DNA of 51,185 nt, taken from the IMG/VR virus record IMGVR_UViG_3300027747_001067, positions 1 through 51,185 of that record; one strand, given 5' to 3'. Below are positions 1-51,185 of this stretch, one piece after another. The notes beneath the pieces were generated by a model. The model made no database searches. It saw only the letters and a list, made by a program, of their open reading frames with translations, and was not told where the DNA came from. The translations under genes were made by a program, and so were the position numbers. Numbering within the stretch: position 1 is the stretch's first letter; each line of letters starts with the position of its first letter. This DNA comes from a virus. Lineage: Duplodnaviria > Caudoviricetes.

Positions 1-864
1 CGATAGCTTCTGAACGCACTCGTCTAGGAAGGCGGTCTTGCTCTTGGCAGAACCGGTGCCCTCCAGTTGGACACCGTGGTACTCAGCGGACTTCATGGCT
101 AGGTCGGATGCGATGAGCATGGTCTCACGCATGTCACCAAGGTCCTCGCGGGACATGGGGATGCCGGCTTCGGACATGGTGATGATGGTCCACAGACAGT
201 CGGAGTAGTGCTGGATGCAGTAGGGCGAGAGCTTGTCCGTGTCGGGCCAGTCGATCAGGATGCGACGGGCCAACTCGGCTGAGGCAAGCAAGGTGTTGTG
301 CGTGTCTTGTGCTGCGTAGTCGAGGAACTGCGGATCGTGGGGGGACCTGAACTTGCCGTCCTTGATGGTACGCTTGTACGCATGAGTACCGAGGACAGGA
401 CCGAGAGACTTGAGGGATCGCTCTGGCCTGAGTTCCGAGTGCAGATAGTTAAGGATCGAGAGGTCATACAAAGTTTTGCTGTGTGGGGGCAGAGCGAACT
501 GAAAGCGGTGATCGCATGCGCGAAGGAACTGCAGATCAAAGGGCAGGTTCATGCCGAGGATCGTGTCGGCCCAGGTAAGCCAACGATGCAGGAGTACGCG
601 ATCCTTTTCTACATCCATGTGTAGGGTGAAGGTGCAGCATGGCTTGGCCTTGTCCATAGTGACATGAGCAAGGTAAGTCTTGGCGCACGGGCACGAGTGG
701 ACCTCGGTGGTGATGGTGCAGGTGAGGACCATGTTGTCCTTCGAGACGCCGTCGGTTTGCATGGCGCGCTGAGGATGGAACACGGACTGTGAGGGGAGAG
801 ATTGACCCTTGGCGTTGGCGACGCATGAGCCGTACGTCTCGATGTCAAGGGAGATCAGTTTCAT
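1..864 (-). CDS. polA: Family A DNA polymerase, N-terminal 3'-5' exonuclease part (continues across the window junction into 51185..50055)
   Basis: Not in the ORF track because it runs off the edge. Manual translation from ATG at 864 gives MKLISLDIETYG (ExoI), GMNLPFD (ExoII) and YAAQD (ExoIII). 864 nt is 288 codons and joins the polymerase domain in frame. Confidence 0.9.
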   Translation of the reverse strand, partial: MKLISLDIETYGSCVANAKGQSLPSQSVFHPQRAMQTDGVSKDNMVLTCTITTEVHSCPCAKTYLAHVTMDKAKPCCTFTLHMDVEKDRVLLHRWLTWADTILGMNLPFDLQFLRACDHRFQFALPPHSKTLYDLSILNYLHSELRPERSLKSLGPVLGTHAYKRTIKDGKFRSPHDPQFLDYAAQDTHNTLLASAELARRILIDWPDTDKLSPYCIQHYSDCLWTIITMSEAGIPMSREDLGDMRETMLIASDLAMKSAEYHGVQLEGTGSAKSKTAFLDECVQKLS

Positions 865-1034
865 GGGGCAGCCTTTTGATTGAGGTAGTCGGTGAGGAAG
901 GTGCGGGCTCGGTCGATGAGATCGAACGCTTCTTCCCAGTTGCCAAACTCTTCAAGGGTGTAGTCAAGGAATGCGTCGTCGAGATCCTCGAGGAGTTCGG
1001 TTGCTTCCTTGGTCATGTTCTTCTTCTTTTTCAT
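861..1034 (-). CDS. Small acidic hypothetical protein
   Basis: 3' part of ORF 861..1190; AAGGA before ATG at 1034; stop overlaps the polymerase start (ATGA). Confidence 0.6.
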   Translation of the reverse strand: MKKKKNMTKEATELLEDLDDAFLDYTLEEFGNWEEAFDLIDRARTFLTDYLNQKAAP

Positions 1035-1245
1035 TGTCTGATTCCTTTGGATGAATCTGCAGTGTGTCGTTGCGGACGACGGTGACTTGGTGATCCATGA
1101 AGTGGCGGATGCGTCCGTCGTCAAGGACCACTGCGTAGCAGGCGTTGGTGTACATACCTGGGCTACAGATGTACAGGAGGTACCCCTCACCGAGTGGGGT
1201 GTTGACTGGGATGAGTTGCTGGAACTCGTGTATCTGGTTGTGCAT
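964..1245 (-). CDS. Hypothetical phage protein
   Basis: 93 aa ORF (IHEFQQLIPVNTPLGEGY...DDGRIRHF), co-oriented in the operon; resembles small phage proteins from memory only. Confidence 0.65.
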   Translation of the reverse strand: MHNQIHEFQQLIPVNTPLGEGYLLYICSPGMYTNACYAVVLDDGRIRHFMDHQVTVVRNDTLQIHPKESDNEKEEEHDQGSNRTPRGSRRRIP

Positions 1246-1363
1246 GGATCTTCTCTAGCTCAAATAGTTTTCGCATGGCATGACGCAGCTTCATGATCTC
1301 CATGAGTGCTGACTTGCACGATGGGCATGACGAGGACTGTAGCGTTTCGATCAACGTGTCCAT
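1187..1363 (-). CDS. Small hypothetical protein with CxxC
   Basis: Manual translation MDTLIETLQSSSCPSCKSALMEIMKLRH..., 58 aa; fills the gap just after the UDG stop. Confidence 0.45.
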   Translation of the reverse strand: MDTLIETLQSSSCPSCKSALMEIMKLRHAMRKLFELEKIHAQPDTRVPATHPSQHPTR

Positions 1364-1366
1364 GGG

Positions 1367-2092
1367 TCAGTTCATCTTGGGGTTCTTTCGGAACTCATCG
1401 TTCCAGTGGTTGGCTTCCGCTGGGTCGTTGGGTGAGAAGGGGGTGACAATGCGTGGGCTGGATGCTACGGGCATCTGGCCGATGATGGCTGAATGGACAA
1501 GGGTCATGTGGTCGGCGACGGGGTGGAGGAGGTTGCGAGAGCGGAGCACGGCGGCTGGGTGGAACGTGGTGAAGAGTTGCCAGTCTCCCCATAGTCCGGT
1601 CGGTGTACCTTGTCGGTTGAATGCAGAGGTTAGCGACCAGGGCTTGGGCTGTGTGAACTTGGTGACAGTGGAGATGGCGTGGGCACCGACGCAGAGCAGG
1701 ATCTTGGGAACGTGGGGGGCAATGAGTTGGCCAACGGCATTGAGATCCTGAGCAGAGAAGGCAGGGAAACAAGTGCGGAAGTGACGGGGCTTGGGTGGTG
1801 CAGCGGCTGGCGTGTAGCAGCGGGCTGCGTTGAGGAGGATGACTGAGGCGTGAGGCAGGATGGATGGGAGGTAGATCTCCTTGAGCATCTTGCCTGATGG
1901 CCCAACGAATGGCTCGTTGAAGCGGTCCTCTTGGAAGCCTGGGTTCATGCCGAGCACTGCGACGATGGGTGTGAGGGGTGAAGGTAGCAACGACTCAGAA
2001 AGAAAAACCCCGGGGACTCCAGGGTTCTTCGCGTGCTTGTGCAGTTCGCAGGCAGTGCAGGATGGGGCGGGGAGTAACAGTGGTAGGTTCAT
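1367..2092 (-). CDS. Uracil-DNA glycosylase, family 4-like (4Fe-4S)
   Basis: CTACELH, GMNPGFQED...PFVGPSGKML, NAARC, FRTC and TFHPAAVLR match family 4 UDG motifs; ATGA overlap with the upstream gene at 2089-2092. Confidence 0.88.
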   Translation of the reverse strand: MNLPLLLPAPSCTACELHKHAKNPGVPGVFLSESLLPSPLTPIVAVLGMNPGFQEDRFNEPFVGPSGKMLKEIYLPSILPHASVILLNAARCYTPAAAPPKPRHFRTCFPAFSAQDLNAVGQLIAPHVPKILLCVGAHAISTVTKFTQPKPWSLTSAFNRQGTPTGLWGDWQLFTTFHPAAVLRSRNLLHPVADHMTLVHSAIIGQMPVASSPRIVTPFSPNDPAEANHWNDEFRKNPKMN

Positions 2093-2370
2093 GCGGGCTC
2101 CTTCTGTGGGGGGATGCACCAATCCCAGATGGCTTCGTACTGATCTGGGATGATGAGCTTGCGACAGAGTTCGTGCTGATCGCGGTCGATCATGAAGGCG
2201 TAGGGGAAGAGCTTGTCACCGTCGGGGTGAGACTCGATGATGCAAAGGGTTGGGTAACGGGCTCCTGTGTCCTCATGGCGCAGATCCACAAGTGTGATGG
2301 CGGGTATGGGTCGCTGCTTGAAAGCGTGCCACAGAGTACGCAGGTTAGTTCCGTTGGCTTCAGATGGCAT
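2089..2370 (-). CDS. Hypothetical protein
   Basis: C-terminal 93 aa of ORF 2089..2943 (MPSEANGTNLRTLWHAFK...); fills the gap between the vWA and UDG genes. Confidence 0.65.
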   Translation of the reverse strand: MPSEANGTNLRTLWHAFKQRPIPAITLVDLRHEDTGARYPTLCIIESHPDGDKLFPYAFMIDRDQHELCRKLIIPDQYEAIWDWCIPPQKEPA

Positions 2371-2383
2371 AGTGCGGATCCTT

Positions 2384-4498
2384 CTACTGGTTGGCAAGAC
2401 ACTGACCAATTCCTGTGATGAGCTGGCATGCAACGGGCACGGCATCCAGCGGGGACTCAACCTTGAACCACTTGTCGTGATTGTACTGCTGACGGAGAGT
2501 CTGTGCATCAATGCCGAAGCCGAAGCCGACGGTGAACACGGGAATGGGAATGTTGTCAACGATGTGACGGACGCTGGAGATGCCATCGTTGAAGGGCTCC
2601 TGATTGTGGTAAGGATCTTCGACGCCACCGCAGGGTGCACCGTCAGTGAGATGGATGATGATCTTGGTTGCGTCGGGGTGATGAGCAAAGAGGTAATCGG
2701 ACGCAGACTTGATCGCGGTTGCAGACGGAGTGCCACCGGTGGGGTACGAGTAGAGGAGAGCGGAGTCAGTGTCGAGGCGACGCATGCTGCACACGGGGAT
2801 ACTGCTGTCTGCAGATGGATCAGACTTGGTGTGCACGAAGTAGTCGCTGTCATCGGCAACGCAACCGCTGCAGTAAGCGAAGGAGGACAGCGAGACGTTG
2901 GATGCACGAGCCAAGCCGTCCTTGAGACCGGCAAGGAATGCAAGCGCTTCCTGCATCACGTTGTGACTGGGCTCGTACTTGTGGGTAGCGAGGTCGATCT
3001 CCGTGGGGTAGACATTGAGGGACATGGACGAGGAAGAGTCAAGGACGACGGCGATTGCGATCTGGCCGTGACCTGCCTCGGGGGGGATGGAGAAGATACG
3101 CGGATCGTTGAAGGCTGCAAGGTTAAGCAGGCTGCCCTCGTCGAGCACACCCTGGAGTTGGGCGTGGTCAGTGGGTGGTGGGGCAGGCACGTGCCACGCA
3201 GCAGCACTGATGGCCTCTGCGATGGGAGCACGGACCTTGTCTTGCAGGCGCTTGGACTTGGCGGCGTACTCACGCAACTTGGGATTGCGTGCAAGGACGG
3301 GGGCCATCTGCTCTTCAGTCATCATGTCGTAGAAGATGGATGGTGGGGGTATGCCCACACAGGGCGAGTCGGTGGGTTCCCACTGAGCATCTTCCTTGGA
3401 CGGCTCGATGACGCAGTCACCGCTTGTGTGCTGCTTGCGGTGGAAGGACTCGTCCTTGTCGGGGGTACCGTCGATACCGAGTCCGCTGCTGCCACGACGA
3501 GGAGTGGTACTGCGCTTGGGCTTCTCCTCGTGGGGGGACAGGACGCGGGCCAGGTAATCGACGAGTTCGCTGATGGCAAAGATGTGTTCTTCGTTGGTGC
3601 GACACTTGGAAAGGATGCCGGGCCATGCTTGGACGGCGAGGTCATAGGCAGACTTGAACTGCTTGGGGAACGGGATGCGCTGGTCGGGTGCAGCGTTGAG
3701 GTTCCATGCAAGGGCCATGCAGAAGCGACGGAGTTCCGAACGGTACTTGCTCTTGGTCTTGACAGCCGAGGCAACCTCCTCCGTGGGGGGAAGGAGCACG
3801 GAGTCTTGGGCTTCGAAGATGGAGTGCCAGCCCGGCCATTGGGTAAGGATCTTGGTGCGGATGTCACGGACACAGGCTGCGTACCAGACGTCAAGCACGC
3901 AGTCAGCATGGACAGAAAGAATATCGCAGCAACCACTTGGCATAGGTGGAAGGTTGGTGTTCTTGAGCAGGTCGGCCACGAACATGAGACCGTGGTAACC
4001 GATGTTGAGGCATGCGTTGTCACGCTCCATGGACTCGAGGCCATAGCCGGTGATGGCATCGGCCAGGGTGTAGATGTCGGGAACGTGGTCAAGCATGCGG
4101 TCAGAGATGAGACTGCCGGGGATGTAGATGCTGGGTCCCCGGTCGGTCATTGGGTCATAGGGTGTGTTGGGGTTGTCCCAGATGTCACCGTGTCGATAGG
4201 CATTGATGAAGTTGTTGACGATGTCAATCTTCTCGCTGGCATTGGGCTGTCGCCTCCAGTCTGCTACGTAACGGTCCATGTGGCCGGCGAAGGCTTCGAT
4301 GGCGGATGAGATGGAGAGACGCTCGATGGTCTCGAGGGGCACGTAGTTAACACCAATAGGGCGGCAAGCCCAGAGAGACCATACCTTGTTGGTGATCTCA
4401 CTCGTGCGGTTGAGGATGTTGCGCTTGTCAGATCCATCGTCGGTGTCGAACCAACCGCTGGTGTCGATGTCGAAGTTGTCAAGGATGCGTTGAAACAT
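2384..4498 (-). CDS. vWA (MIDAS) domain protein, CobT/NorD-like partner of the MoxR AAA+ ATPase
   Basis: VVLDSSSSMS (DxSxS), PTGGTP and IHLTDGAP MIDAS motifs; start MFQRILD at 4498 overlaps the ATPase stop. Confidence 0.85.
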   Translation of the reverse strand: MFQRILDNFDIDTSGWFDTDDGSDKRNILNRTSEITNKVWSLWACRPIGVNYVPLETIERLSISSAIEAFAGHMDRYVADWRRQPNASEKIDIVNNFINAYRHGDIWDNPNTPYDPMTDRGPSIYIPGSLISDRMLDHVPDIYTLADAITGYGLESMERDNACLNIGYHGLMFVADLLKNTNLPPMPSGCCDILSVHADCVLDVWYAACVRDIRTKILTQWPGWHSIFEAQDSVLLPPTEEVASAVKTKSKYRSELRRFCMALAWNLNAAPDQRIPFPKQFKSAYDLAVQAWPGILSKCRTNEEHIFAISELVDYLARVLSPHEEKPKRSTTPRRGSSGLGIDGTPDKDESFHRKQHTSGDCVIEPSKEDAQWEPTDSPCVGIPPPSIFYDMMTEEQMAPVLARNPKLREYAAKSKRLQDKVRAPIAEAISAAAWHVPAPPPTDHAQLQGVLDEGSLLNLAAFNDPRIFSIPPEAGHGQIAIAVVLDSSSSMSLNVYPTEIDLATHKYEPSHNVMQEALAFLAGLKDGLARASNVSLSSFAYCSGCVADDSDYFVHTKSDPSADSSIPVCSMRRLDTDSALLYSYPTGGTPSATAIKSASDYLFAHHPDATKIIIHLTDGAPCGGVEDPYHNQEPFNDGISSVRHIVDNIPIPVFTVGFGFGIDAQTLRQQYNHDKWFKVESPLDAVPVACQLITGIGQCLANQ

Positions 4499-5520
4499 TA
4501 GAAGGGCTCCGCGTTGGTGGTGGTGACGGTGTCGGACACGAGGCCGGGGAACTTGCCGGCGAGGAGAGTGGCCATCGCTGCGCGCTTCGAGTGGTCCTCG
4601 ATCTTGGACAGGATAGTATAGCGCAGGGACTGCTGGCCGTACTTGGCGATGTCGGAAGCGGCGGCAAGCAGTTCGCGGGTGGAGATGGGCTCGTGCGTGG
4701 AGTTCTTGCCTCGGGTGTTGGAGGCGATGTGAGCGAGAGCAACGCACGAGTCGATGTCAAGAGTGGTACGACGCTGGAGCAGCATGGCCTCCTTGGGGGT
4801 GGGCAGGTAGGTGACTTCGATGACACGCGAGAAGCGGTCGCGGAGGGCCAGGTCAACGGGCGAGGCACCGAGATACTTGGCACCCATGTTGGTGGTAGCG
4901 ACGAACGTGGTGTTGGGTCCGACGCGTACTGCTGAGCCGCGTTCCTCGATCCACGAGGCACGACGGTGGTCGAGCAGAGGCATGAGACCGTTGAGCACGG
5001 AGGCAGGTGCGCGGTTGAGTTCGTCGAGGACGACGACGCAGTTGCCAGAGGTGACGGCGCGCACGAACTCGGTGTCCTGCCAACGGATGCTGCCGTTGTG
5101 CACGGTGCGGAAGCCGAACCAATCGCGTGGCTCACGGATCACGGAGCAGTCCATGATGAGCAGGCGCTTGTTGGTTTCCTGTGCGAGCCACTGACCGATG
5201 GAGGTCTTGCCGCAGCCGGCGGGACCGACGAGGCGCAGGTTCTCGATGCCGGTGGAGGTACCGATGGACATCAGGAACGACTTGAGGTTGTCATCGAGTT
5301 CGAGGTCGATGCGCTCGGTGGGGGTAGCGGGCATGGTGCCAGGGACATCGAGTCCGTGGGGGGATGCGGCGAACAGACCGTCATCGAAGGCGGGCTTGTG
5401 TGTGTCCATTGGCATGGGCTCCGGTGTGGTGCGTCGAGTAGTCATGGTGGGTGCGGGGTTGGCGGCGTTCATGCGGGCACGAAGGGCTGCAATGGCAGCA
5501 GGCGAGAGGTTCAGGTTCAT
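4498..5520 (-). CDS. MoxR/CbbQ/CobS-like AAA+ ATPase
   Basis: Walker A GPAGCGKT, Walker B VVVLDELNRA, ATTN sensor, DLALRDRF arginine finger, ISTRELL sensor II. Confidence 0.9.
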   Translation of the reverse strand: MNLNLSPAAIAALRARMNAANPAPTMTTRRTTPEPMPMDTHKPAFDDGLFAASPHGLDVPGTMPATPTERIDLELDDNLKSFLMSIGTSTGIENLRLVGPAGCGKTSIGQWLAQETNKRLLIMDCSVIREPRDWFGFRTVHNGSIRWQDTEFVRAVTSGNCVVVLDELNRAPASVLNGLMPLLDHRRASWIEERGSAVRVGPNTTFVATTNMGAKYLGASPVDLALRDRFSRVIEVTYLPTPKEAMLLQRRTTLDIDSCVALAHIASNTRGKNSTHEPISTRELLAAASDIAKYGQQSLRYTILSKIEDHSKRAAMATLLAGKFPGLVSDTVTTTNAEPF

Positions 5521-5538
5521 TGGTGAGTTCCTTATGGG

Positions 5539-5997
5539 TTAGCAGGCTGAGAATCCACCGCACGCGCGGAGGAAGTTGATCCACTCTTCGAGTTTGGATC
5601 GGGTGATGGAGTAGACAGGGACCCAGTTGGGGTCACGAGTGGCAACGGATTGTTGCTGTTGGCGAGTGATGAACTGACCGGTGTTCTTGTCGACAAGCAT
5701 CTCCTCTGATTCCTCGGGTAGAGGTGGAGTCCAGTGGTCATTGCCGGTAGCGTCGTAGTGCGTGGCCTCGAACTCATTGTCGAGGAAGTCCTGGAATTGT
5801 TCGGCGATGCGGTTGCACATGGCCTGGTTGTTGGGACCAGCGCCATCGTTGGCACCAAGTCGAGTGAGCATGGTGTCACCGAGGAACTGACATCGGGAAC
5901 ACAGCAGGTAGTGGATGGGACGCCAGGTCCAGATCGAGGCACGAAAGTATTCGCCATCGGTGTGAGATGGCTTGCGTCCATGTACATCAAACCCCAT
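5539..5997 (-). CDS. Hypothetical phage protein
   Basis: MGFDVHG...GEYFRASIWTWRPI...WINFLRACGGF; AAGGAGG upstream. Confidence 0.75.
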   Translation of the reverse strand: MGFDVHGRKPSHTDGEYFRASIWTWRPIHYLLCSRCQFLGDTMLTRLGANDGAGPNNQAMCNRIAEQFQDFLDNEFEATHYDATGNDHWTPPLPEESEEMLVDKNTGQFITRQQQQSVATRDPNWVPVYSITRSKLEEWINFLRACGGFSAC

Positions 5998-6178
5998 TGT
6001 CGTTGTCCTCCTTGAGCATGTGGTAGATCTTTTCGAGCAGGTCACGCAGCAAGTCGACGCGCTTGTTGGTTGCGTCGAGTTGGTTCTGTTGGTTCTCGAA
6101 GAGCTTGTGCGCAGTGTCGATGACGTGGTTGTGCTTCTCTTCGAGGGTGTCAAGACGATCGTTGATTGCGTCAATCAT
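5987..6178 (-). CDS. Small coiled-coil hypothetical protein
   Basis: 63 aa with heptad-like pattern; tiles the operon. Confidence 0.65.
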   Translation of the reverse strand: MIDAINDRLDTLEEKHNHVIDTAHKLFENQQNQLDATNKRVDLLRDLLEKIYHMLKEDNDNGV

Positions 6179-6186
6179 GGTGTTGG

Positions 6187-6750
6187 TTATCCGAAGGGGG
6201 ACTTGGGATCAGAGGGCAGGTTGTTGTAGTCGTCCGGGTAGGGCGAGTCCTTGTAGAGCGGGTCGAAGGTGGGTGGCTTGGGCTTGAGGTAATCAGCAGG
6301 CTTGGGGTTGAAGCCCATCTCTTTGAGGACTTCGGGCATGTGCTTGCCGTTGATGGAGACGTCCTCTTCATTGGCCTTCTTGGGCATGACCACGACCAGA
6401 CCGATACGATCGGGCTGGCCGGGCAGGGAGATAGGACCGAGGTCGTCCTGCTCCTTGAGGATGGTGGTGCCACGGAGGGAGGCAGCCATCATGAGCTTCA
6501 TGCACAGCAGGTCGAAGAACTCAACCCACACGCGGTCAGGGGTGCAGTGATCGGGGGACTGTTGCGTGATGATCTCGTGCTGGGCACCGGCCTTGCCACC
6601 GAAAGGCGTGGTGGCAAAGCAGTCGTAGTCACAAGCATCGACGCGGTCAGCGACGACGTTGTTGCCACGCGTGCGTGTGCGGGAGATGGAGATGACGGTG
6701 CCGTCACCTGCTGCGGTGCTGATAGTGATGGAATGGACAAGTCGATTCAC
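6187..6750 (-). CDS. Hypothetical protein
   Basis: ORF 6187..6792; GTG at 6750 overlaps the upstream stop and follows GGAG. Confidence 0.65.
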   Translation of the reverse strand: MNRLVHSITISTAAGDGTVISISRTRTRGNNVVADRVDACDYDCFATTPFGGKAGAQHEIITQQSPDHCTPDRVWVEFFDLLCMKLMMAASLRGTTILKEQDDLGPISLPGQPDRIGLVVVMPKKANEEDVSINGKHMPEVLKEMGFNPKPADYLKPKPPTFDPLYKDSPYPDDYNNLPSDPKSPFG

Positions 6751-7292
6751 TTGACGATCTCCGAAGGATGGCGTGAGGCTGGCCCGACCCACGATGAGTC
6801 GAGCAACAGACGATGAGAGTCATTGCGACGGAAGCGACGGTATCGGTTGTCGCCGATACGGAAGTCGGGGTCGCCTTTGGTGTGGATGCGTACGTTGGCG
6901 GTGCGGCAGACACGACGAGGAGGAAGTGCAGCAGCGCTGATCTCTGACTTGCTGACGCTACCGAAGAGAGCAAGGATGGAGCGTGCAGTGAGGTTGTCAC
7001 TGGACATGAGAGCGGCTGAGTCAACACGTCCGAGGCTGCGTTCGATGAACGAGTCGGCTTGGTGTCGAGTGCGTTCGTTGCTGGAACGAAGGCGTTCGGC
7101 GTGCTCCCAGTTGCAGGTGCGGAGGGAGAAGTTGGGCGTGTCGCAACCGTCAGAGTCGATGCGAGGCACGGCGTTATTGGGATCGACCAGCATCACACGA
7201 CCACTGACGATGCGGATGGGGATGTTACCGAGCGAGAGGGTGTTGAACTTCACATCGGACGGGCGAATGTCGTCAATCTTGTAGAAGGACAT
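6747..7292 (-). CDS. Hypothetical protein
   Basis: 181 aa ORF preceded by ATAAGGAACTCGCC leader. Confidence 0.7.
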   Translation of the reverse strand: MSFYKIDDIRPSDVKFNTLSLGNIPIRIVSGRVMLVDPNNAVPRIDSDGCDTPNFSLRTCNWEHAERLRSSNERTRHQADSFIERSLGRVDSAALMSSDNLTARSILALFGSVSKSEISAAALPPRRVCRTANVRIHTKGDPDFRIGDNRYRRFRRNDSHRLLLDSSWVGPASRHPSEIVK

Positions 7293-7321
7293 GGCGAGTT
7301 CCTTATTGAGGTTGGGTCACG

Positions 7322-7355
7322 CCCCCCACTGCCATGGTGTATGGACAGTGGGGGG
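7322..7355. promoter_or_regulatory. Intergenic stem-loop
   Basis: CCCCCCACTG-CCAT / ATGG-A-CAGTGGGGGG inverted repeat with a 5-nt loop, between two minus-strand genes. Confidence 0.65.
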
Positions 7356-7370
7356 ACATGACGGTGGGGG

Positions 7371-7913
7371 TCACGAAAGCTGAGCGTCTTCGCTCGGATC
7401 AGACTGCTCGCCCGTGTTGGACAGAGCAGACGGTTGAGCAGGAGCGTCGGTGTCGGAGTCATGACGCTGCGACTTGATCACAGACTGGACAGCCTCGCTG
7501 AGAGGCTTGACGCCAGTGACCTTGTTGCGAGCACCGTAGTCCTTGCTGACTTCCTTGCCGACTGAGACAGTGAACACGACGCCTGAGTGCAGAGCCTTCT
7601 CAAGCTCGAGGCTGAACATGCGAGTCGTGATGGTGGCGTCACTGTCAAGCTGCATGTCGCAAGCCTTGAGGTAGTGCGCGTAACGCCACACCACGCCGTC
7701 GTTGACCAGCGTGCAGTCGGTGTCGTTGTGCAGCGGGGGCAGCAAGTCGAACACCTTGGCGGTACGGCCCGAGTCGAGCGTGATGTCGAGCACGACCGAG
7801 ATGTTGAACAGACCGGGCTTGGACTTGGACGGACGCAGTTCCACCTTGTTGATGGTGGCGCAGTAGTCACCGGCGGTGATGAGCAAACGATCCTGCATTT
7901 CAGTGATGTTCAT
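7371..7913 (-). CDS. DUF669-like putative ssDNA-binding protein
   Basis: AGDYCATINKVELRPSKS...VSVGKEVSKDYGARNKVTGVKP pattern typical of DUF669-type phage SSBs; acidic/polar tail; AGGAG RBS. Confidence 0.6.
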   Translation of the reverse strand: MNITEMQDRLLITAGDYCATINKVELRPSKSKPGLFNISVVLDITLDSGRTAKVFDLLPPLHNDTDCTLVNDGVVWRYAHYLKACDMQLDSDATITTRMFSLELEKALHSGVVFTVSVGKEVSKDYGARNKVTGVKPLSEAVQSVIKSQRHDSDTDAPAQPSALSNTGEQSDPSEDAQLS

Positions 7914-8002
7914 GGCGAGTTCTCCTAATGGAGGTTAAGTGAGAAGAGTGATGTGGTCAGGACACACGTCGCTGCCACCTGCCCCAGCCTCCCTCCCTTT
8001 TT
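7914..8002 (-). promoter_or_regulatory. Repeated early-gene leader module, copy 1
   Basis: Minus strand AAAAAGGGAGGG, then a hairpin with GTGT loop, then TTAGGAG RBS. Confidence 0.6.
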
Positions 8003-8029
8003 GGAAAGAGGCGTAAGGCGTAAGACAGA

Positions 8030-8093
8030 ACACACAAACAAACACACAAACCCCCATCCCTGCGGGGGCCGCATGGCCCCGCAGGGATGGGGG
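8030..8093 (-). terminator. Intrinsic terminator
   Basis: ~19-bp GC-rich stem (CCCCCATCCCTGCGGGG...CCCCGCAGGGATGGGGG) followed on the minus strand by TTTGTGTGTTTGTTTG. Confidence 0.75.
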
Positions 8094-8099
8094 AGTAGG

Positions 8100-8634: not shown

Positions 8635-8722
8635 GCGTAACTCCTTATGCAAGGATGAAGTAAGAAGCGGGGTTGGGCTACACACCCAACCCCGCACACC
8701 AACCACCGGCCCCCTCCCTTTT
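8635..8722 (-). promoter_or_regulatory. Repeated early-gene leader module, copy 2
   Basis: AAAAGGGAGGGG, then an 11-bp hairpin GCGGGGTTGGG/CCCAACCCCGC with TGTGTAG loop, then CTTGCATAAGGAG. Confidence 0.6.
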
Positions 8723-43728: not shown

Positions 43729-44339
43729 ATACGATACCAAAACTGGAACTTGGTCCCGTCGTCTGTAGCCCTCGCGGACCACCTGACGGCTCGGGGGGTG
43801 AGCCTTTGACCCGACCCAAGGATGCCGTCCATGGCATCCCGGATCGGGCCAGGTACTTGGAAGGTAGCGACTCGCCAGCTACCACCTTCCAAGAATGCTG
43901 TGAAGTCTAGGCTGTCCGCCAGCCGCACCACGTTGCCCCGTACGGGCTCCGACTTATCCAGCCACCCTTCTAACGTCTCCTTGGAGGGGGCTCCGTGGAG
44001 GGCCGCCCAGGACGCCAGGAGCCATCGGGTGTGTCCCCCCAGCGGATGGGGGGTCTCCCACAGGTCGAGGGCACAGCGGCTGCGGTAGAGCCCGCGGCGG
44101 GGGGACAGGGTGATGGGGGGCAGGGGGCAGGCTTTGGAACCCCGAATGGTGGTCCAGAACCGGACGGATCTAGGGTTCTTGGCGTCAGGGCGGATGTGTT
44201 GAATGTGGGCCATGCCGTTTCCAGCATGGACCCACTTGCAAAAGGAAGCCCCCTGGACACCGGTCAGGTAATCCAGGGGGCGATCGTGGGGGGACGATTG
44301 TTCGCCATGGTAGTGACTGCTTCCCACAGGGCAAGTCAT
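43725..44339 (-). CDS. Hypothetical protein
   Basis: 204 aa ORF directly after the SSB-like gene. Confidence 0.6.
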   Translation of the reverse strand: MTCPVGSSHYHGEQSSPHDRPLDYLTGVQGASFCKWVHAGNGMAHIQHIRPDAKNPRSVRFWTTIRGSKACPLPPITLSPRRGLYRSRCALDLWETPHPLGGHTRWLLASWAALHGAPSKETLEGWLDKSEPVRGNVVRLADSLDFTAFLEGGSWRVATFQVPGPIRDAMDGILGSGQRLTPRAVRWSARATDDGTKFQFWYRI

Positions 44340-44349: not shown

Positions 44350-44874
44350 TCAAGACAGCGACAGCGGGGCGACCAAGAACTCCTTGAAGTACTTGGTGCC
44401 GGGCTTGGCCTTGCTCTCGTCGTAACGCGCGCGGAGCTTGACCGGAATCACGTTGCCGTTGTTGATGCGCTCCTGCACGGTCTGCATAGCCATCTGCAGA
44501 TTCTCAGGACGACGGCCGATCAGGGTGGTGAGGTGACCCTTGATGCGCTCCAGTTCGATGCGAGCGCGGGTCTTGGCACCCTCGTCGGTCAACTGGGTGG
44601 GGTCAGCGGGCATCTGGAAGCGGGCACCCGTAAAGCTGCGAGGCTCGGGGCTGCCCGGATCTTCGACCATCTGGTACTGAAACGTGATGTCGATGGACGG
44701 GAACAACTGGCCGTCCTTCTGCTTGAACTCTCCTTCCTCGATGGTCATGCCCGTGACGAGCACGGCGTGGTCACCGGCATCGGGACGCCAGCCTGCGCCG
44801 GAGCCCTCGGTGTTGGCCTCGACCGAGGCGAAGGAGTTGTTGTACGCAGCGAACATGGTGGACTTGATAGTCAT
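44350..44874 (-). CDS. Putative ssDNA-binding protein
   Basis: 174 aa OB-like pattern (WRPDAGDHAVLVTGMTIEEG...IPVKLRARYDES...KYFKEF), downstream of the Sak4-like ATPase. Confidence 0.6.
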   Translation of the reverse strand: MTIKSTMFAAYNNSFASVEANTEGSGAGWRPDAGDHAVLVTGMTIEEGEFKQKDGQLFPSIDITFQYQMVEDPGSPEPRSFTGARFQMPADPTQLTDEGAKTRARIELERIKGHLTTLIGRRPENLQMAMQTVQERINNGNVIPVKLRARYDESKAKPGTKYFKEFLVAPLSLS

Positions 44875-45028: not shown

Positions 45029-45934
45029 TCAGGGAGTGTTGGCGGTCTTGTAGGCTTCTTCGAACAAGCCCCAAGGGTCAACTGCACTGGTCACGTCGAT
45101 GTCCTGCATCGGCTTGAGAGTGCGAGTACGGATGAGTCGCAGGTAGCGCGGGTCACGGAACGAGATGGTACGCGTGATCGTCTGCTTGGTAACAGTACGG
45201 TTCTGCGTAACCTGCTTCCCGGCCACGGTAACAACTGTTGGTTCCACGGTGGAGACTTCGCGCACTTCCGAGCGCATGGGTGCAATGATCTCTACCACCT
45301 TGGACAGTCGCTCCCGCAGGCCGGGAGGCAGGGACAGGTAGTGCTCCTCTACCTTGGATCCTTCGCCGATCTCCACCCAGTCGCGGGACAGGTGGGCGAG
45401 CAGCCAAACGCCGTAACCATGTGAGCGCAGACGGTGAGCCACATCAATCACCGTGTCGTACAGACGCTCCCACGCTGCAGGACCGTGTGCCTGCTCAAAG
45501 AGTTCCTTGCCCATCTGCCGTGCAACCCACGGCTTGAGCAGACGGATCATCGGGATCATGGTGTCAATGACGACCATTGAGGGGCGCTCGTCTCCGTTCT
45601 TAGCCATATCACATAACTGCTTGATCTTGGCTTCGACGTGGTCCCAGGTAATGATGAGCGGCTTTCCGTCGACGTCCATTGGACGACCATCAAGACCAAT
45701 GCCGGGCCACACTGCACACTTGGCGTGGGGGGACACGGTGCTGGACAGATCGAGGTTGATGACAAAGGCGTCGGGGCAGGACTGGAACAAGTAGGACTTG
45801 CCAGAGTTTTGCTCACCCACGACCATGCCGAAAAGATTACGGAGCGAATAGAGACCAGGTCCACCCTGGAATCCTAGCCCCTTATATGCCCGAACGGGGC
45901 CATTGCCTGCTGCTGTTGTCTGATGAATGCTCAT
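45029..45934 (-). CDS. Sak4/AAA_24-like P-loop ATPase (recombination)
   Basis: Walker A GEQNSGKS, VINLD, Walker B VVIDT, WLLAH; between exonuclease and SSB. Confidence 0.75.
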   Translation of the reverse strand: MSIHQTTAAGNGPVRAYKGLGFQGGPGLYSLRNLFGMVVGEQNSGKSYLFQSCPDAFVINLDLSSTVSPHAKCAVWPGIGLDGRPMDVDGKPLIITWDHVEAKIKQLCDMAKNGDERPSMVVIDTMIPMIRLLKPWVARQMGKELFEQAHGPAAWERLYDTVIDVAHRLRSHGYGVWLLAHLSRDWVEIGEGSKVEEHYLSLPPGLRERLSKVVEIIAPMRSEVREVSTVEPTVVTVAGKQVTQNRTVTKQTITRTISFRDPRYLRLIRTRTLKPMQDIDVTSAVDPWGLFEEAYKTANTP

Positions 45935-46344: not shown

Positions 46345-47596
46345 TTGCTGTCTCCTTTGGTGCGTCTCGATCAACGATGACAAAACCTTCTTGCATCACG
46401 ATGTCTGGCCACTCCGAAACAGGACGCAAGACAAACGGTGCGTATGTGTCGAGTGTACCAGTACCATGAACTTCTGTGGGCCACGGATACTCATGCGGTT
46501 CAATCTCTGCAATGCGCCACTTGTTGAGAGCGGCGAGGCGCGCACGATACTGACCTACCCACTGTTTGTCTAGTAGGGCAGTACCCGAAGTGAAAGATAA
46601 ATCCACAAGAGGTTCAGCCACCCGCTCTGCCTTGAGGTGCACATAGTCCTTCTCACCCATGTACCACTGGCGGCAGCGCTCAATGTAGTTCTCTAGCCGG
46701 GGCTCCCCTGTGTACACTTTCTCATTGCGAGGCTCGCCCTTGCGGGGTCCACTCTTGAATGGCGTGGTGTCCAGGATGTAGTCCCTATCGGACTGGCCGA
46801 AGGAGATGGTGGGCTTACGCACAATGGCGTGAAGCATGCCCCCCACGGTGGTGTCATCGGGCAGATCGAACTGCTTCTGCAACTGGCCACGCTGCAACAG
46901 ATCGTGGGCGATGCTCATGTAGTGCTGGGTCTGTGGCTCAATTGGGCACGAGGCTCCACGGATGCGAGGGCTGATGCCCGTGGTCTTGTAGTCCACGATC
47001 CACAAGGAGCGCTGTGGCTTGTGGAACAGCAGCAAGTCAGGCTGCATAACACAGGTCACAGGGTCCATGCGCTTGTCGTCCAGTGTCAGGTCTGTACGCA
47101 GCAGGCACTCGTTGCACAGGGGGACAAAGTCAGGCCCGCTTAAGAACTCGTGCATGCTACGACCATTGGCAAGGGACCCCTCGATGGGCAGGTCCTTGGA
47201 CACGAGGGACCAGGCCCACCCGCAAGTGGCGTCCTGCTCTTCGACGGCAACGATCTCACGCGTGCGTTGGTCCCCAATGGACAGCTCCTTGCATACGCTA
47301 CGCATCTCGTCAATGCGTGCCTCAAGCTTGGCCTGGTATTGGATGTGGGCTGACTCCACGGTGTTGCTGGGGTTCATCAGCAACTCGAGGGCCGCGTGGA
47401 ACCACGTGCCCTGCGAGAGGGCCACGCTGTAGCGCAGCGCTGGGACGAGGCCCAGCTTGCGAGTGAGGTAGTAGTGGAATGGGGATCCGAGCGAACGGAA
47501 GTCGGATGATCGGACGGGGGGACGACGCTCAACCAGACCGTGCTGGGCGAGCAGATCACGCGACCCCACTGGGGTCGACCGGAACTCAGGTGGCAT
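46334..47596 (-). CDS. PD-(D/E)XK exonuclease (RecB/Cas4-like)
   Basis: ALSQGTWFHAALE, QPDLL, WIVDYKTT and QTQHY motifs; AGGAG RBS. Confidence 0.85.
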   Translation of the reverse strand: MPPEFRSTPVGSRDLLAQHGLVERRPPVRSSDFRSLGSPFHYYLTRKLGLVPALRYSVALSQGTWFHAALELLMNPSNTVESAHIQYQAKLEARIDEMRSVCKELSIGDQRTREIVAVEEQDATCGWAWSLVSKDLPIEGSLANGRSMHEFLSGPDFVPLCNECLLRTDLTLDDKRMDPVTCVMQPDLLLFHKPQRSLWIVDYKTTGISPRIRGASCPIEPQTQHYMSIAHDLLQRGQLQKQFDLPDDTTVGGMLHAIVRKPTISFGQSDRDYILDTTPFKSGPRKGEPRNEKVYTGEPRLENYIERCRQWYMGEKDYVHLKAERVAEPLVDLSFTSGTALLDKQWVGQYRARLAALNKWRIAEIEPHEYPWPTEVHGTGTLDTYAPFVLRPVSEWPDIVMQEGFVIVDRDAPKETANVQ

Positions 47597-47608: not shown

Positions 47609-48988
47609 TTAGGTGGTAGTAAGTAAGTTTAGTTCAGTTTGCGTCTTAGTCACTGGCCAGTACTTGACCTGTGCAAAAGTCATGCACGGCATATAATTTC
47701 CGTAACTTGTTGTTGGAAGCCTGCCCAACACAAACTTCGTTGAGGCATACAGGTCTCCAGTTCCTGCCCTGTTGATAGTTCCAACTGTTCCACCATTCAA
47801 AACTGCAGCAACGATTGGATCGCTAGTTGTGTTAACGCTGCAAGCATAACGTGTTTGTGCGTTGAGGGTGTACCCTCTATACACTTCATTTGGACCACCA
47901 GAACTCAAACTTGGTCCGCGCGCTGCAACGCCAATATTGGTAGAGTTTGTGAACACTTCAAATGTTGGTCGTGGACTAGGGCTGTTACTGTCCATAAACC
48001 CGACGATCTCTGTGTAAGCACCGGGTGTTTGCTTGTGAATGATGCCGCTCCAGTAAAGCGTACCGTTGGTGGTGCTCACTTGGAAAGGAGAAGCATCAGC
48101 AATGAAACACTGGTCAGCTGCTCGTGTCACAGCAGCAGTAGTTGTTGGGATGTACGAGGATGCTCCGTTGCCTGCTTCAAGTTGCGCGCCCCAAACGTAA
48201 ATGCCGCTTCCAGTAGTCCCTGCATATGAGGTTGTGGTTCCGTCTGTAGACAGCCTCATTTGACAGTTTGCGCTTGTTTGTCCAGCAGCGGTTGTAAATC
48301 GCATTTCAATCCGATACCACCCGGTTGTTCCGATTGCTGTAACCCTTGTGTTACCGGCGACTGATTCGCTAACAATGTTTCCGTTTGACAGGTTTACCAT
48401 GTTAGTCGCGCTGCTTCCACCGTTTTCATACAGCTGGACAAATGTTCGTTCGACTGCTTTTGCCCAAACGCTGAAGGTATATGCCGTTGAAGCAGAGGCA
48501 GTAGGCACACTTAATGTTGCATGCACTCCGTTTGTAGTTGTTTCTTCAACTTTGACAACTGTTCCGCTTGATCCAGTTGGGTTGGTGGTTGTGACTGTTC
48601 CTCTTGTCGTATTCACTGCTGAGAAGTTCCAGTTCACTGCGCCGCCAGTAGTTTGAAATGACTCACTCCAGTTCAACAGGTTCGTTGCGCTTCCCTCAAT
48701 TAGCAGCCCTCGAGGGGCTAGCGTGGTCGGGTTGTAGTCAAAGCGTGGCACACCAGCAGCAACACTTTGCACATAACCACTGCTGTTGATAAAGGTGGCT
48801 GTTCCAACTGCACCTGAAGTGGTTGAAGAACTTCTATCAAAGGTGAAGCGCGAATCCAGAGATGACATCTGGGTAAAGTCAAGGGTGAGCGTGGACCCGT
48901 CGCTTGCTTCGAGTGCGGGGTAGATGCGGTTACGCTGATCGCGTGTGCCGAAGGCGTCAAGAGAAGACGCGCGTGTTCTGTTCATCAC
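47609..48988 (-). CDS. Virion spike/fibre-like carbohydrate-binding protein
   Basis: LDF..., ATFINSSG, PRFDYNP...RGLLIEGSATNLL, YTFSVWAK, GWYRI, WGAQLEAG..ASSYIPTTTAAVTRAAD: recurrent phage spike/fibre signature. Confidence 0.75.
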   Translation of the reverse strand: MMNRTRASSLDAFGTRDQRNRIYPALEASDGSTLTLDFTQMSSLDSRFTFDRSSSTTSGAVGTATFINSSGYVQSVAAGVPRFDYNPTTLAPRGLLIEGSATNLLNWSESFQTTGGAVNWNFSAVNTTRGTVTTTNPTGSSGTVVKVEETTTNGVHATLSVPTASASTAYTFSVWAKAVERTFVQLYENGGSSATNMVNLSNGNIVSESVAGNTRVTAIGTTGWYRIEMRFTTAAGQTSANCQMRLSTDGTTTSYAGTTGSGIYVWGAQLEAGNGASSYIPTTTAAVTRAADQCFIADASPFQVSTTNGTLYWSGIIHKQTPGAYTEIVGFMDSNSPSPRPTFEVFTNSTNIGVAARGPSLSSGGPNEVYRGYTLNAQTRYACSVNTTSDPIVAAVLNGGTVGTINRAGTGDLYASTKFVLGRLPTTSYGNYMPCMTFAQVKYWPVTKTQTELNLLTTT

Positions 48989-49503
48989 ATCTCCCCAACG
49001 TGGGCGTTCACCTTAGTGCCAGCAGTGGCAACAAAGTTCAACTCAACCAGTTCAAAACCCTGGGAGTCAACGACAAAGTAAGCGTCCGTGTTGCCCGTGG
49101 AAGGTGCAAACAGTTTGGCATCACCCGCACCCTTGGTCAGGGTTGCTGCGGCCAGAAGTTCCGTGCCGTTGAGGGTGAGACCGGTGCTTGCAGAACGAAG
49201 GCTAGCCATGGTGACTTCGGCAATCAGGTGGGGGATCCAGTAGCGGGTATCGCTGCATAGGGCCCAGCCAATTACACGGATAGTGGGAGTAGCAGCAGAA
49301 GCCCAAGGGTGAATCTTCATGTAGTTCGAAGTGGAACCAAAGACGATTGAGCCACGAGTTGCCGTAGTAGTGCTCACGTCAGTTGCGGGCCGGGTCGTAG
49401 TGGGGTTACGAACCTGCGCGGTTGCTGCGGTAGTGACATCCGTACTACTCTTGTTGCCAAGATAGGTGTTGCGGACGATGGTGTTGAGCATCACGTGTGG
49501 CAT
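48985..49503 (-). CDS. Beta-rich, Thr-rich putative structural protein
   Basis: 172 aa, translationally coupled to the spike-like gene. Confidence 0.6.
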   Translation of the reverse strand: MPHVMLNTIVRNTYLGNKSSTDVTTAATAQVRNPTTTRPATDVSTTTATRGSIVFGSTSNYMKIHPWASAATPTIRVIGWALCSDTRYWIPHLIAEVTMASLRSASTGLTLNGTELLAAATLTKGAGDAKLFAPSTGNTDAYFVVDSQGFELVELNFVATAGTKVNAHVGEM

Positions 49504-50045
49504 GGTGGTTCCTCAGAGGGGGTGATAGTGGGGAGTATAGGGCACAGTGCCGCGTTGACCAAGAGGCGTACTGCCCACTCGGCCACGGCACGGCGTGCAC
49601 TCATGCTGGTGTTCGGTAAGAGAATCAGACCAATGTTTCTTTCAAGCAAGATGCGATGCAGGGCGTCGATCGCATTCCAGGGATCAGGCAGATCCTTGGT
49701 GGGGTTCATGGTGTCGAGCAGGTTCCCTTCGAGCAGGAGGTAGGGGTAGAAGCAGGCTTCTTTGAGTCGGTCCATTGCCGCTGTGAATTTGCGGCGACCG
49801 TCGGCGGTCAAGCAGTTCCCTGCCACCTCGGCTAGTGAACCCTTCCGCTCGATTAGACAGGCGACTTCGTACCCCTTGAGTGCGTAGTCCCCGGTGACGA
49901 GCGTGACCTTCTCGGTCTTGAGGCGGTGGGTTCGTGAACTCCGGGAGAGAGCAGGCAGGTCCGACCGAAGCGACGGAAGGTGCTCCGGAAAGGGCAGCGG
50001 CTTCTTCTCCCTAGAGTCCACGAGGATCGTGAGTTCGTTGTTCAC
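49491..50045 (-). CDS. ERCC4/XPF-type nuclease
   Basis: ILVDSREKKP, TGDY, LIERKGSLAE and YLLLEG motifs. Confidence 0.85.
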   Translation of the reverse strand: MNNELTILVDSREKKPLPFPEHLPSLRSDLPALSRSSRTHRLKTEKVTLVTGDYALKGYEVACLIERKGSLAEVAGNCLTADGRRKFTAAMDRLKEACFYPYLLLEGNLLDTMNPTKDLPDPWNAIDALHRILLERNIGLILLPNTSMSARRAVAEWAVRLLVNAALCPILPTITPSEEPPCHT

Positions 50046-50054
50046 CCCCGTAGC

Positions 50055-51185
50055 CTAGCTGAAGTCGTACTCCAAGGGAACTGTGTTGCCGTAGTGGGAC
50101 TGGAGCTTGGCCCAGTACCCGGTGTCACGGACCTCCTCAATGTGGGACTTGATCTTGGACTTGAGGGTGTCGAGGTCCACGGAGGGGTGGACGTCGAGGT
50201 AGACCGCGTCATAGATCTGGAGGAACATCTTGACGTGGGGGGACAGGAGGGGGGCGATGGCTCGCTGGATTGCGAGGAGGGTGTTGCCGGCCTGGGTCTG
50301 GATAGGGAAGTTGACGATCTCGTTGAGGTGCTCGTCGCTTCCCCCCACGAAGGTGCGGGACTGGCCGGTAAAGGGAAGGACAAGGTGGCCGTCGATGTCG
50401 GCGCGTCGGAGAAGGGAATGCTGCCAGGCATGGAGGCCGGGGCGGGCGTCGGGTCGGGTCTCGGCTACCTGCTCGAAGAAGGACAGGGGCATGAGCTGGC
50501 CGGTCATCTCGTGTACTGACATCCGCATGCGGAAGGGGGAGGCAAGGAAGAGGTCGGCGAAGTTCATGGTCTTGCCCACTTGACGTTCAAGTTTCTTGAA
50601 GGTTTGTGAAGTAAGGCAGGTCTTGCCGAAGAGTTGGACGGCTCGGTCTGTGTGCAGGTCGAGTCCATTGTTGAAGGCGTCAAGGAGAGACCTGTCGCCA
50701 GAGCACAGGGCAGCTACGCGAAGCTCGATCTGCGAGAGGTCGAGAGACAGGATCGTGCCACCATGGAAGCGGGACTTGATGCAGGCTTTGATCTCAGGCG
50801 GGAAGGTCTGGGCCGAGGGACTCTTGCAGGTGATGCGGCCCTGAATGGTGCCACCTTCGGAACCCGAGTTGTCCTTCGATGCGGATGGCACGGGATACCA
50901 GACTGGGAAGGCGAGCCCGTCAGCCTCGCCGGGGTATGGGAGCGGGAGAACGGTGGACGACTTGTCTTCGGGCTTGTTGCGCTTGCCCTCGAGCAGGGGC
51001 CAGATGTAAGTGGAGAGCATCTTCTGTGCGCGCTGATGAGCGGCTGCAGCTGTGAGTACGGCGATCTCCTTGGTGTCAGTGTCGAGGAGGAAGCCACGGA
51101 TCAGGTTGCGGTTGGCGTCAGAGAATGAGAAGGCCCGGGTCTTCTCGGTGAACTGGGCAAGGGGGTGGGAGAGGACGTCGATGTT
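50055..51185 (-). CDS. polA: Family A DNA polymerase, C-terminal polymerase domain
   Basis: GTIQGRITCKSPSAQT, motif A LDLSQIELRVAA, DLHT, motif B RQVGKTMNF, NFPIQ, motif C QIYDA; frame open up to 51185. Confidence 0.92.
   Translation of the reverse strand, partial: NIDVLSHPLAQFTEKTRAFSFSDANRNLIRGFLLDTDTKEIAVLTAAAAHQRAQKMLSTYIWPLLEGKRNKPEDKSSTVLPLPYPGEADGLAFPVWYPVPSASKDNSGSEGGTIQGRITCKSPSAQTFPPEIKACIKSRFHGGTILSLDLSQIELRVAALCSGDRSLLDAFNNGLDLHTDRAVQLFGKTCLTSQTFKKLERQVGKTMNFADLFLASPFRMRMSVHEMTGQLMPLSFFEQVAETRPDARPGLHAWQHSLLRRADIDGHLVLPFTGQSRTFVGGSDEHLNEIVNFPIQTQAGNTLLAIQRAIAPLLSPHVKMFLQIYDAVYLDVHPSVDLDTLKSKIKSHIEEVRDTGYWAKLQSHYGNTVPLEYDFS

Follow-up and report, generated by a model that had tools for sequence, protein, structure and literature searches.

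A strand-biased G-run word is conserved across a family of uncultured phages and resembles phage nick-site words

Strand-specific interruptions associated with a DNA word have been described in a few phages. In phage tf, 14 nicks lie in the 9-base word TACT/RTGMC, all of them in the top strand of a genome of 46 kb in which two gene sets converge, and tf relatives carry a one-base variant of the word, for which the authors propose co-evolution of nickase and site (PMC3517423). In phage Rembedalsseter, 13 strand-specific drops in coverage coincide with all 13 copies of WACTRTGAC, the function of which is unknown, and sixty relatives are enriched for the word both inside and outside genes (net 9.0 copies versus 0.7 by chance) (PMC11780129). 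The nick consensus of phiKMV is long, CGACxxxxxCCTA/CTCCGG (quoted in PMC3517423), and the purpose of strand-specific phage words has been open for some 50 years (PMC11780129). Here we describe the 9-base word GTGGGGGGA in virus record IMGVR_UViG_3300027747_001067, the whole of which, 51,185 bases, was analyzed and is called the window; it constitutes the complete, circularly permuted genome of an uncultured phage. An initial annotation made from the letters had singled out the word and compared it with Chi, KOPS, and the priming octamer of phage NrS-1. The closest documented precedent is the nick words of tf and Rembedalsseter (PMC3517423; PMC11780129), which the annotation had missed. We find the observation to be real, robust, and family-wide, with phage nick-site words as its best-supported analogy.

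The window contains 18 plus-strand and 4 minus-strand copies of GTGGGGGGA, and all 22 lie exactly where they had been annotated. One hundred dinucleotide shuffles gave a mean of 0.73 copies and a largest value of 3; the annotation had estimated about one copy by chance. Synonymous codons were also shuffled within each gene (n = 1,000), such that the proteins and the per-gene codon usage were kept; genes were called approximately, as the longest open reading frames (ORFs) per block with overlaps checked by hand, and one intergenic copy per strand stayed fixed in every shuffle. The plus-strand count of 18 compared with 2.78 ± 1.18 in these shuffles (maximum, 7) and the minus-strand count of 4 with 1.36 ± 0.56 (maximum, 4), and permutation of codon order gave 1.3 and 1.25 copies, respectively. 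The full count was biased toward one strand (18/22; two-sided binomial P = 0.004). Runs of six G residues alone were hardly enriched over the synonymous shuffles (GGGGGG, 38 versus 27 ± 5 on the plus strand and 20 versus 20 on the minus strand). Plus-strand G6 runs (34) were about as frequent as G5 runs (33); 20 of the 34 were preceded by GT, and 18 of those 20 were then followed by A, which bears out the remark that the run is nearly always exactly six. Matches with at most one mismatch numbered 45, 23 of them inexact, versus 19 ± 3.6 matches in shuffles, such that the one-mismatch class is near chance; the six variants named by the annotation exist, but the idea that they fill gaps between exact copies lacks statistical support. 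The wider consensus is cGTGGGGGGAc. We conclude that the enrichment is specific to the flanked word and not to G6 runs or one-mismatch forms.

Copies of the word were found in nearly every relationship to genes. Twenty of the 22 fall within called ORFs, where they occupy frames 0, 1, and 2 in both sense (VGG, xGG, and WGE) and antisense (SPH and PPT) orientations, as had been reported for genes coded on either strand. The other two (7348 and 29874) are intergenic, and the copies at 2106 and 12872 are probably just outside the true coding sequence. Because copies occur in all frames, sense and antisense, no peptide or transcript-level role fits all of them. The genome is organized as a minus-strand gene block running from about 43.3 kb through the junction of the record to 11.4 kb and a plus-strand block from 11.4 to 43.3 kb. 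Copies are mostly on the sense strand in the plus block and mostly antisense in the minus block, and the majority polarity is uniform round the circle, in both blocks, with no switch point. A promoter reading was rejected, as most copies are inside genes and antisense in the minus block. In the window and five complete relatives, which share sites, the spacing of plus copies was mildly even (coefficient of variation, 0.60 to 0.76 versus 0.94 ± 0.17 for random placement), with majority-strand copies about 1.7 to 2.4 kb apart in these six genomes carrying two different words; the evenness was not significant in contigs of two distant relatives.

The G6 runs are real and not homopolymer artifacts, since they fall in ORFs of all three frames and are found again at the corresponding places of relatives that were assembled independently. 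Positions 1 to 20000 were compared with contigs from four further studies, with all 30 depth bins covered in three runs and 29 in the fourth; none of the indels listed (12 of 48) lies in a copy, and 40 of 1,374 substitutions were listed. An intergenic G6 run outside the word, at 9744 to 9749, is seven bases long (G7) in contigs from three other studies.

The word is conserved beyond its surroundings. Considering the window's 28 GTGGGGGG sites, those retained among those aligned were 17/20 in the complete relative G002, 14/19 in G001, 13/19 in G005, and 7/11 in G003, in aligned segments of 66 to 95% identity. Exact 9-mers were fully conserved more often than neighboring 9-mers within ±150 bases: 9/15 versus a local background of 0.17 in G005 (P = 2e-4), 5/8 versus 0.07 in G003 (P = 7e-5), 11/16 versus 0.35 in G001 (P = 0.007), and 14/17 versus 0.51 in G002 (P = 0.008). 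Third codon positions within copies likewise exceeded flanks within 150 bases in four relatives, being conserved in 46/48 versus 0.78 and 42/45 versus 0.74 in two of them, 35/42 versus 0.61 in G005, and 16/21 versus 0.51 in G003. Copies at 3530, 5356, 21416, 30300, and 50235 were gained or lost between close relatives, and thus sites turn over while density is kept. Codon-preserving shuffles, excess 9-mer conservation, and excess third-position conservation together indicate that selection acts on the DNA word rather than on the peptide, which sustains that part of the original interpretation; none of the functions it offered, namely, priming, a Chi-like signal, and translocation or packaging, is thereby demonstrated. 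We conclude that the word is under purifying selection at the DNA level.

Relatives of the window phage were collected by its TerL protein. A TerL search recovered 52 related viral contigs (58 to 97% identity; 45 to 68% G+C), and a search with a TerL protein alignment recovered 36 further viral contigs at 52 to 61% identity. In most of the first set, GTGGGGGG was the commonest or near-commonest 8-mer. All 43 partial loci of the G6 lineage (483 kb) carried the word, with 213 plus and 108 minus copies; plus exceeded minus in 37 loci, 6 were tied, and minus exceeded plus in none. Majority/minority counts of GTGGGGGG were 22/10 in G001, 25/7 in G002, 30/14 in G003, and 21/10 in G005, and a control word with the letters reversed occurred 4 to 7 times per genome. 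The fifth complete relative, G004, whose TerL is 58% identical, carries GTGGGGGGG, a G7 form flanked by A-rich sequence, in 25/7 copies and has zero G6 copies on the majority strand. In the window and all five complete relatives, the majority strand is the TerL-sense strand, and the relatives and partial loci are biased 2 to 3.5:1 toward it. The TerL-sense majority holds in plus-coded and minus-coded blocks of each complete genome, with a narrow margin in the minus block of G003 (11:8) and G005 (7:5). The annotated plus polarity round the genome stands as far as the same majority strand throughout is concerned, but it is a bias of about 70 to 80% and not absolute, and minus-strand copies are both enriched and conserved.

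The exact word differs between lineages. Forms seen across the family include G6, G7, and G5 versions, CAGTGGGGGT, GAGTGGGG, CCTTGAGTGGGGGG, and GATGGGAGGGGTG; the core is 9 to 11 bases in the window lineage and reaches 13 to 14 bases in distant relatives. At 52 to 61% TerL identity, GTGGGGGG was among the top four 8-mers of L081, L085, L088, and L091 (the last at 41% G+C), CAGTGGGG/GTGGGGGT among those of L099, L107 to L109, and L112, and GAGTGGGG among those of L103 and L105; the remaining loci at this distance gave no obvious word by this crude top-four ranking. The same G6 word thus occurs in phages of 41 to 61% G+C, and relatives overall span 41 to 68%. Two distant family contigs from metagenome bins carry long words: caCCTTGAGTGGGGGGw has 13 plus-strand and 3 minus-strand copies over 40 kb of one contig, and rGATGGGAGGGGTG has 17 and 7, respectively, over 34 kb of the other. 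A 14-mer scan of 2.9 million viral contigs returned 74 stretches, and the 14-mer was multicopy in two contigs only; these had 16 and 15 copies (13:3 and 12:3), with the majority on the TerL-sense strand, and both were family members. Among the other, single-copy stretches, 3/63 had any match to a window protein. We conclude that the word is a conserved trait across the whole phage family, with its exact sequence drifting between lineages.

Bacterial sequences were searched for a host and for the word. A single TerL sequence searched against one genome per species found nothing, and the TerL alignment searched against the same kind of set found two metagenome-bin contigs, one in a Myxococcales bin and one in a Bacteroidota bin, both of them syntenic phage contigs of the family. 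Each bin holds several family contigs (C7, C18, and C72 in G006; C235, C464, and C508 in G007), and one bin holds two different family phages with different words. Phage contigs in bins labeled Myxococcales and Bacteroidota are probably binning artifacts, hence not host evidence, and the conflicting bin taxonomy provides no reliable host. In both bins (3.6 and 3.4 Mb), words were concentrated on the phage contigs, and the remainder was at the level of the reversed-letters control. Among 401 genomes from the phylum of one bin, the maximum was about 43 copies per strand per genome; most genomes were close to control, and a few exceeded it severalfold (e.g., 27/40 versus 7/6), where Chi-like density would mean several hundred copies per genome; these counts are suggestive rather than decisive. 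We favor a word read by a phage-encoded reader rather than by the host, because the same word is present at 41 to 61% G+C, two words occur in one bin, and counts are at control level in the bacterial contigs searched.

The resemblance to tf and Rembedalsseter covers word length, copy number, chance expectation, independence of coding, and lineage variants. Here as there, a 9-base word expected about 0.7 times by chance is present in many copies (13 to 14 there; 18 + 4 here), with a strand choice that is independent of gene direction in a genome of two opposed gene sets and with sites inside and outside genes. In both cases, moreover, the word is kept across a family with little nucleotide similarity and has sublineage variants, which differ by single bases there and comprise G5 to G7 forms and 13- to 14-base words here. 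T5, BF23, and phiKMV also have strand-specific, sequence-associated interruptions, and the long phiKMV consensus is reminiscent of the 13- to 14-base words. The systems differ in that the tf/Rembedalsseter word is clustered in part of the genome, whereas the present one is genome-wide, has a G homopolymer core, and belongs to an unrelated phage family. T5, BF23, and phiKMV have few sites (4 to 5 major ones), unnicked copies of the T5 consensus are also present on the other strand, and enrichment of the present size is not reported in the passages of PMC3517423 drawn on here. By analogy with these phages, the word cGTGGGGGGAc may be the target of a sequence-specific enzyme that the phage encodes and that prefers one DNA strand. 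Such an enzyme would most likely be a nickase, leaving localized single-strand interruptions in replicated or packaged DNA as in T5, phiKMV, tf, and Rembedalsseter. We prefer a site for a strand-selective phage enzyme, most likely a nickase, as a tentative reading held at distinctly less than even confidence.

Proteins that could read the word were sought among the window genes. The XPF/ERCC4-type nuclease gene (GDY...ERK; 49491 to 50045, minus strand), conserved family-wide, encodes a candidate reader or cutter, and the SF3 (D5-like) helicase gene (10002 to 11399, minus strand), which matches only the helicase half of primase-helicase families, encodes a candidate reader; we infer these assignments, as we do the phage-encoded reader and the nicking. 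A 975-amino-acid (aa) ORF (13272 to 16199) was considered as a late-gene nickase and dropped, being absent from close relatives.

Several observations weigh against a strand-selective nickase. Because the word is enriched and conserved on the minus strand too, nicks on both strands would follow: strand bias is 68 to 82% and not 100%, such that 18 to 32% of copies are on the other strand, whereas the tf/Rembedalsseter word is on one strand only; the minus-strand enrichment (4 versus 1.4) equals the maximum of 1,000 shuffles; and minus-strand copies at 19230, 29874, 46838, and 50340 are conserved in relatives. Inverted copies at 7321 and 7348 lie 26 bases apart. Nicks were physically shown in the tf/Rembedalsseter systems, whereas here the word is known from assembled contigs alone, and in a weak test, the contig ends of fragmentary relatives coincided with the word in 4/108 cases versus 4.4% expected. 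No HNH, GIY-YIG, or other recognizable nickase was found among the window proteins, and a junction or flap nuclease is the simpler reading of the XPF-type protein. Finally, the role of nicks is unknown even in T5, and a nick reading therefore names a biochemical event and not a purpose.

The same distribution can be viewed as one of lagging-strand priming sites, at which a phage primase-like activity, with the SF3 helicase and PolA, would start Okazaki fragments and for which the strand bias would reflect mainly unidirectional (rolling-circle) replication. Known primase sites (GTC-type for T7 gp4; TTTGGTTA for NrS-1) are also short words specific to the template strand, and the spacing here is on the Okazaki scale and mildly even; the uniform polarity and lack of a switch point fit as well, the helicase matches the helicase half of primase-helicase fusions, and the minority sites could stem from an early bidirectional phase. 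The pRN1 primase-polymerase recognizes GTG. More broadly, AEP primase-polymerases recognize 5′-GTG-3′, and that of NrS-1 recognizes GTG(G/A) and the octamer (PMC8718748); the first four bases of the present word, GTGG, are the site used most efficiently by NrS-1, though genome-wide enrichment of the octamer is not reported in the passages of PMC8718748 drawn on here. Known primase sites are 3 to 8 bases, however, and the 13- to 14-base words of distant lineages exceed any of them, while no AEP, Toprim, or DnaG-type domain was found in the ORFs searched with Pfam or PHROGs, many of which match no family. Minus-strand ORFs at 11763 to 12863, entertained as a hidden primase, had no family match, and the plus-strand ORF at 11439 to 12851 has a good ribosome-binding site. 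The even spacing, moreover, comes from six genomes that share sites and was not significant in the two distant contigs, and third-position GC skew gives no replication direction. We consider priming fairly unlikely. A broader proposal would join priming to nicking: a phage reader co-evolving with a 9- to 14-base G-run word about every 2 kb would prime lagging-strand fragments or leave them unsealed, as a family-wide punctuation of the genome. This proposal is a long shot. If it were true, priming sites and virion nicks would both result from a single process in a unidirectionally replicating genome, and the nicks in T5-like, phiKMV-like, and tf-like phages, so far unexplained, would gain a function.

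A signal controlling nucleases is suggested by other features of the word. Chi in bacterial chromosomes is G rich, polar, and dispersed, with a strand bias of about 75% or more, and Chi and KOPS/SRS words are over-represented and have functions read from one strand; the present word is G rich, dispersed, and biased at about 70 to 80%, with both orientations above chance. A host (RecBCD/AddAB-type) or phage helicase-nuclease attenuated at the word would protect concatemer tails and injected ends, and the phage genome itself codes for both a PD-(D/E)XK exonuclease and a recombinase-like AAA_24 protein. The TerL-sense majority would moreover correspond to the orientation in which Chi is active in lambda, provided that packaging proceeds in the direction of TerL. 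Chi enrichment in phages has been reported (PMC3784561). However, host words are read by RecBCD/AddAB or FtsK/SpoIIIE and switch polarity at ori and dif, whereas the present word has no polarity switch, follows the phage lineage, and is not enriched in the bacterial genomes searched, being at control level outside the phage contigs of both bins and, for the most part, in the 401 genomes of one phylum. All Chi sites known to us are 5 to 8 bases, far shorter than the 13- to 14-base words, and two family members of one bin carry different words. The suggestion of a Chi- or KOPS-like host signal made in the initial annotation is thus disfavored by the 41 to 61% G+C range, the word length, and the control-level counts, and we regard a Chi-like role as quite improbable. 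The word could otherwise be a polar binding site for some other phage protein, acting as a packaging or translocation guide or in condensation, fork blocking, or helicase loading, with no cutting or priming. A protein could recognize G6/C6 tracts by their unusual helix geometry, and the long exact words of distant lineages and the conservation of both orientations fit a protein binding double-stranded DNA. Nonetheless, we know of no polar guide-word system for TerL-type packaging motors, and no candidate DNA-binding protein was identified among window proteins, a 174-aa protein giving only weak SSB/OB-fold matches; such a binding role seems unlikely. Least credible, at almost negligible probability, is a functionless by-product of mutational or repair bias or of inherited protein-coding constraints. 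Several copies do overlap conserved residues, such as W-G in TerL, and sites tend toward better-conserved segments (±30-base identity of 0.77 in G005 and G003), but synonymous shuffles do not reproduce the count, third positions in copies are more conserved than flanks, every frame and either orientation relative to genes is represented among the copies, and lineages maintain different words at similar density. Evasion of a type III restriction system was rejected, as it would account for the bias but leave the enrichment and the conservation unexplained.

Strand-specific, family-conserved words are known from very few phage groups (PMC11780129), and the present case adds an unrelated, uncultured family. 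Its signal is stronger than in the known cases, genome-wide, and accompanied by a readable drift series of G5, G6, and G7 forms and then two 13- to 14-base words, which could help find the reader protein by covariation. The word is also a practical marker with which to recognize and orient contigs of the family in metagenomes. When the word itself was looked up in the literature library searched, the hits were unrelated papers on primers and HIV, and no description of it was found there.

The individual copies are distributed as follows, with retention given for the relatives in which it was seen. In the minus block, plus-strand copies of GTGGGGGGA lie antisense in the PolA gene at 337 to 345 (kept in G002, G001, G005, and G003) and 50235 to 50243 (G002 only), and a minus-strand copy at 50340 to 50348 is in the sense orientation in the same gene (G002, G001, G005, and G003). 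The plus-strand copy at 2106 to 2114 lies just upstream of the ribosome-binding site and ATG of the minus-strand UDG-family gene (G002, G001, and G005). Further plus-strand copies are antisense in the VWA-like gene at 3530 to 3538 (G002 only) and 3783 to 3791 (G002 and G001), in the AAA_5 ATPase gene at 5356 to 5364 (not kept in G002 or G001), at 44286 to 44294 (G002, G001, and G005), and in the AAA_24 gene at 45725 to 45733 (G002, G001, G005, and G003). The plus-strand copy at 7348 to 7356 forms a hairpin with an inverted 8-mer, the minus-strand variant GTGGGGGGC at 7321 to 7329. On the minus strand of 7310 to 7370, this inverted pair makes a strong hairpin after the stop of the gene at 7371 to 7913 (−35.9 kcal/mol; z = −5.4), and inverted word pairs 20 to 26 bases apart also occur in G003 and G004. 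The pair at 29874 to 29891 gave a hairpin no better than shuffles (z = −0.33).

In the plus block, a plus-strand copy at 12872 to 12880 falls between the stop of the ORF at 11439 to 12851 and the next gene (kept in G002, G001, and G005). Sense copies on the plus strand are at 15906 to 15914 (HVGGR) in the nonconserved 975-aa ORF; at 18081 to 18089 (AWGE) in TerL (G002, G001, and G005, with TGGGGGGA kept in G003); at 21416 to 21424 (RGGT; lost in G002 and G001); at 29318 to 29326 (VGGH); at 30300 to 30308 (VGGF; G002 and G001); at 32878 to 32886 (CGGT; G002 and G005); at 36545 to 36553 (VGGP; G002, G001, and G005); and at 41679 to 41687 (SGGT) in a 1,311-aa gene. Minus-strand copies are antisense in a portal-like gene at 19230 to 19238 (8-mer kept in G001, G003, and G004), intergenic at 29874 to 29882, followed by a G6 run and a ribosome-binding site (G002, G001, and G003), and antisense at 37179 to 37187. 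Among inexact forms, GTGGGGGGC occurs on the plus strand at 1712 to 1720 (G002 only) and 24391 to 24399 (8-mer kept in G002, G001, G005, and G003) and on the minus strand at 32224 to 32232 and at 46838 to 46846 (8-mer kept in G002, G001, G005, and G003), and the G7 form GTGGGGGGG occurs on the plus strand at 33730 to 33738. Adjoining the copy at 44286, G5 and G6 runs are clustered on both strands within about 150 bases (43986 to 44127).

The PolA ORF, coding for a family-A DNA polymerase on the minus strand, is split by the ends of the window (864 to 1 and then 51185 to 50055), and the record is therefore a circular permutation of a complete genome. Relatives have terminal overlaps of 127 bases, typical of circular assemblies. 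Besides PolA, the minus block encodes the XPF/ERCC4-type nuclease, the PD-(D/E)XK exonuclease, AAA_24, the UDG-family protein, the AAA_5 ATPase with the VWA protein, and the SF3 helicase; the plus block encodes TerL (16912 to 18846) and structural proteins. No tRNA genes were found in the window. A nucleotide search with 7.8 kb of the window found no match among deposited phages, and the best TerL matches there were 21 to 30% identical, and thus deposited phages include no cultured relative or host. The window phage belongs to an uncultured lineage.

Third-position GC skew tracks codon usage, with the helicase gene as the exception, and for this reason it was dropped as an indicator of replication direction. 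In the SF3 helicase gene, the plus-strand skew is −0.54 versus +0.07 to +0.60 in all other minus-block genes, an opposite sign that possibly reflects a separate origin or a different expression class. The UDG-superfamily gene (1367 to 2122; E = 8e-16) and the XPF/ERCC4-type nuclease gene flank PolA, and both are conserved family-wide. The AAA_5 (MoxR/CobS-like) ATPase and VWA-domain protein are encoded side by side in the early block (2384 to 5520), a pair present in G001, G002, and G003 and not found in the most distant relatives. The conserved 174-aa protein (44350 to 44874) is 100% identical in G001 and G002; its confidently predicted fold (pLDDT, 90.6) matched bacterial SSB OB folds only weakly (best E = 0.013; TM, 0.2 to 0.3).

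Other genes have a patchy distribution. The protein encoded at 47609 to 48988 resembles phage tail/baseplate proteins and, at E = 1e-27, the head-spike fiber (6tb9) from the gene transfer agent of Rhodobacter capsulatus; its gene sits within the replication block and is missing from most relatives. The 975-aa ORF, directly upstream of the terminase genes, has no family match, is missing even where TerL is 97% identical, and has 28 to 30% identical versions in three loci only, which marks the region as a hypervariable slot. An 84-aa DUF6321 protein (25233 to 25487) is 78% identical in the most distant relatives, versus 25 to 43% for other shared proteins, and its gene has a different place and orientation there; a lookup in the protein cluster Atlas returned only viral DUF6321 clusters. 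Parts of positions 1 to 10000 of the window were found in 22 freshwater or lake sequencing runs from 17 studies.

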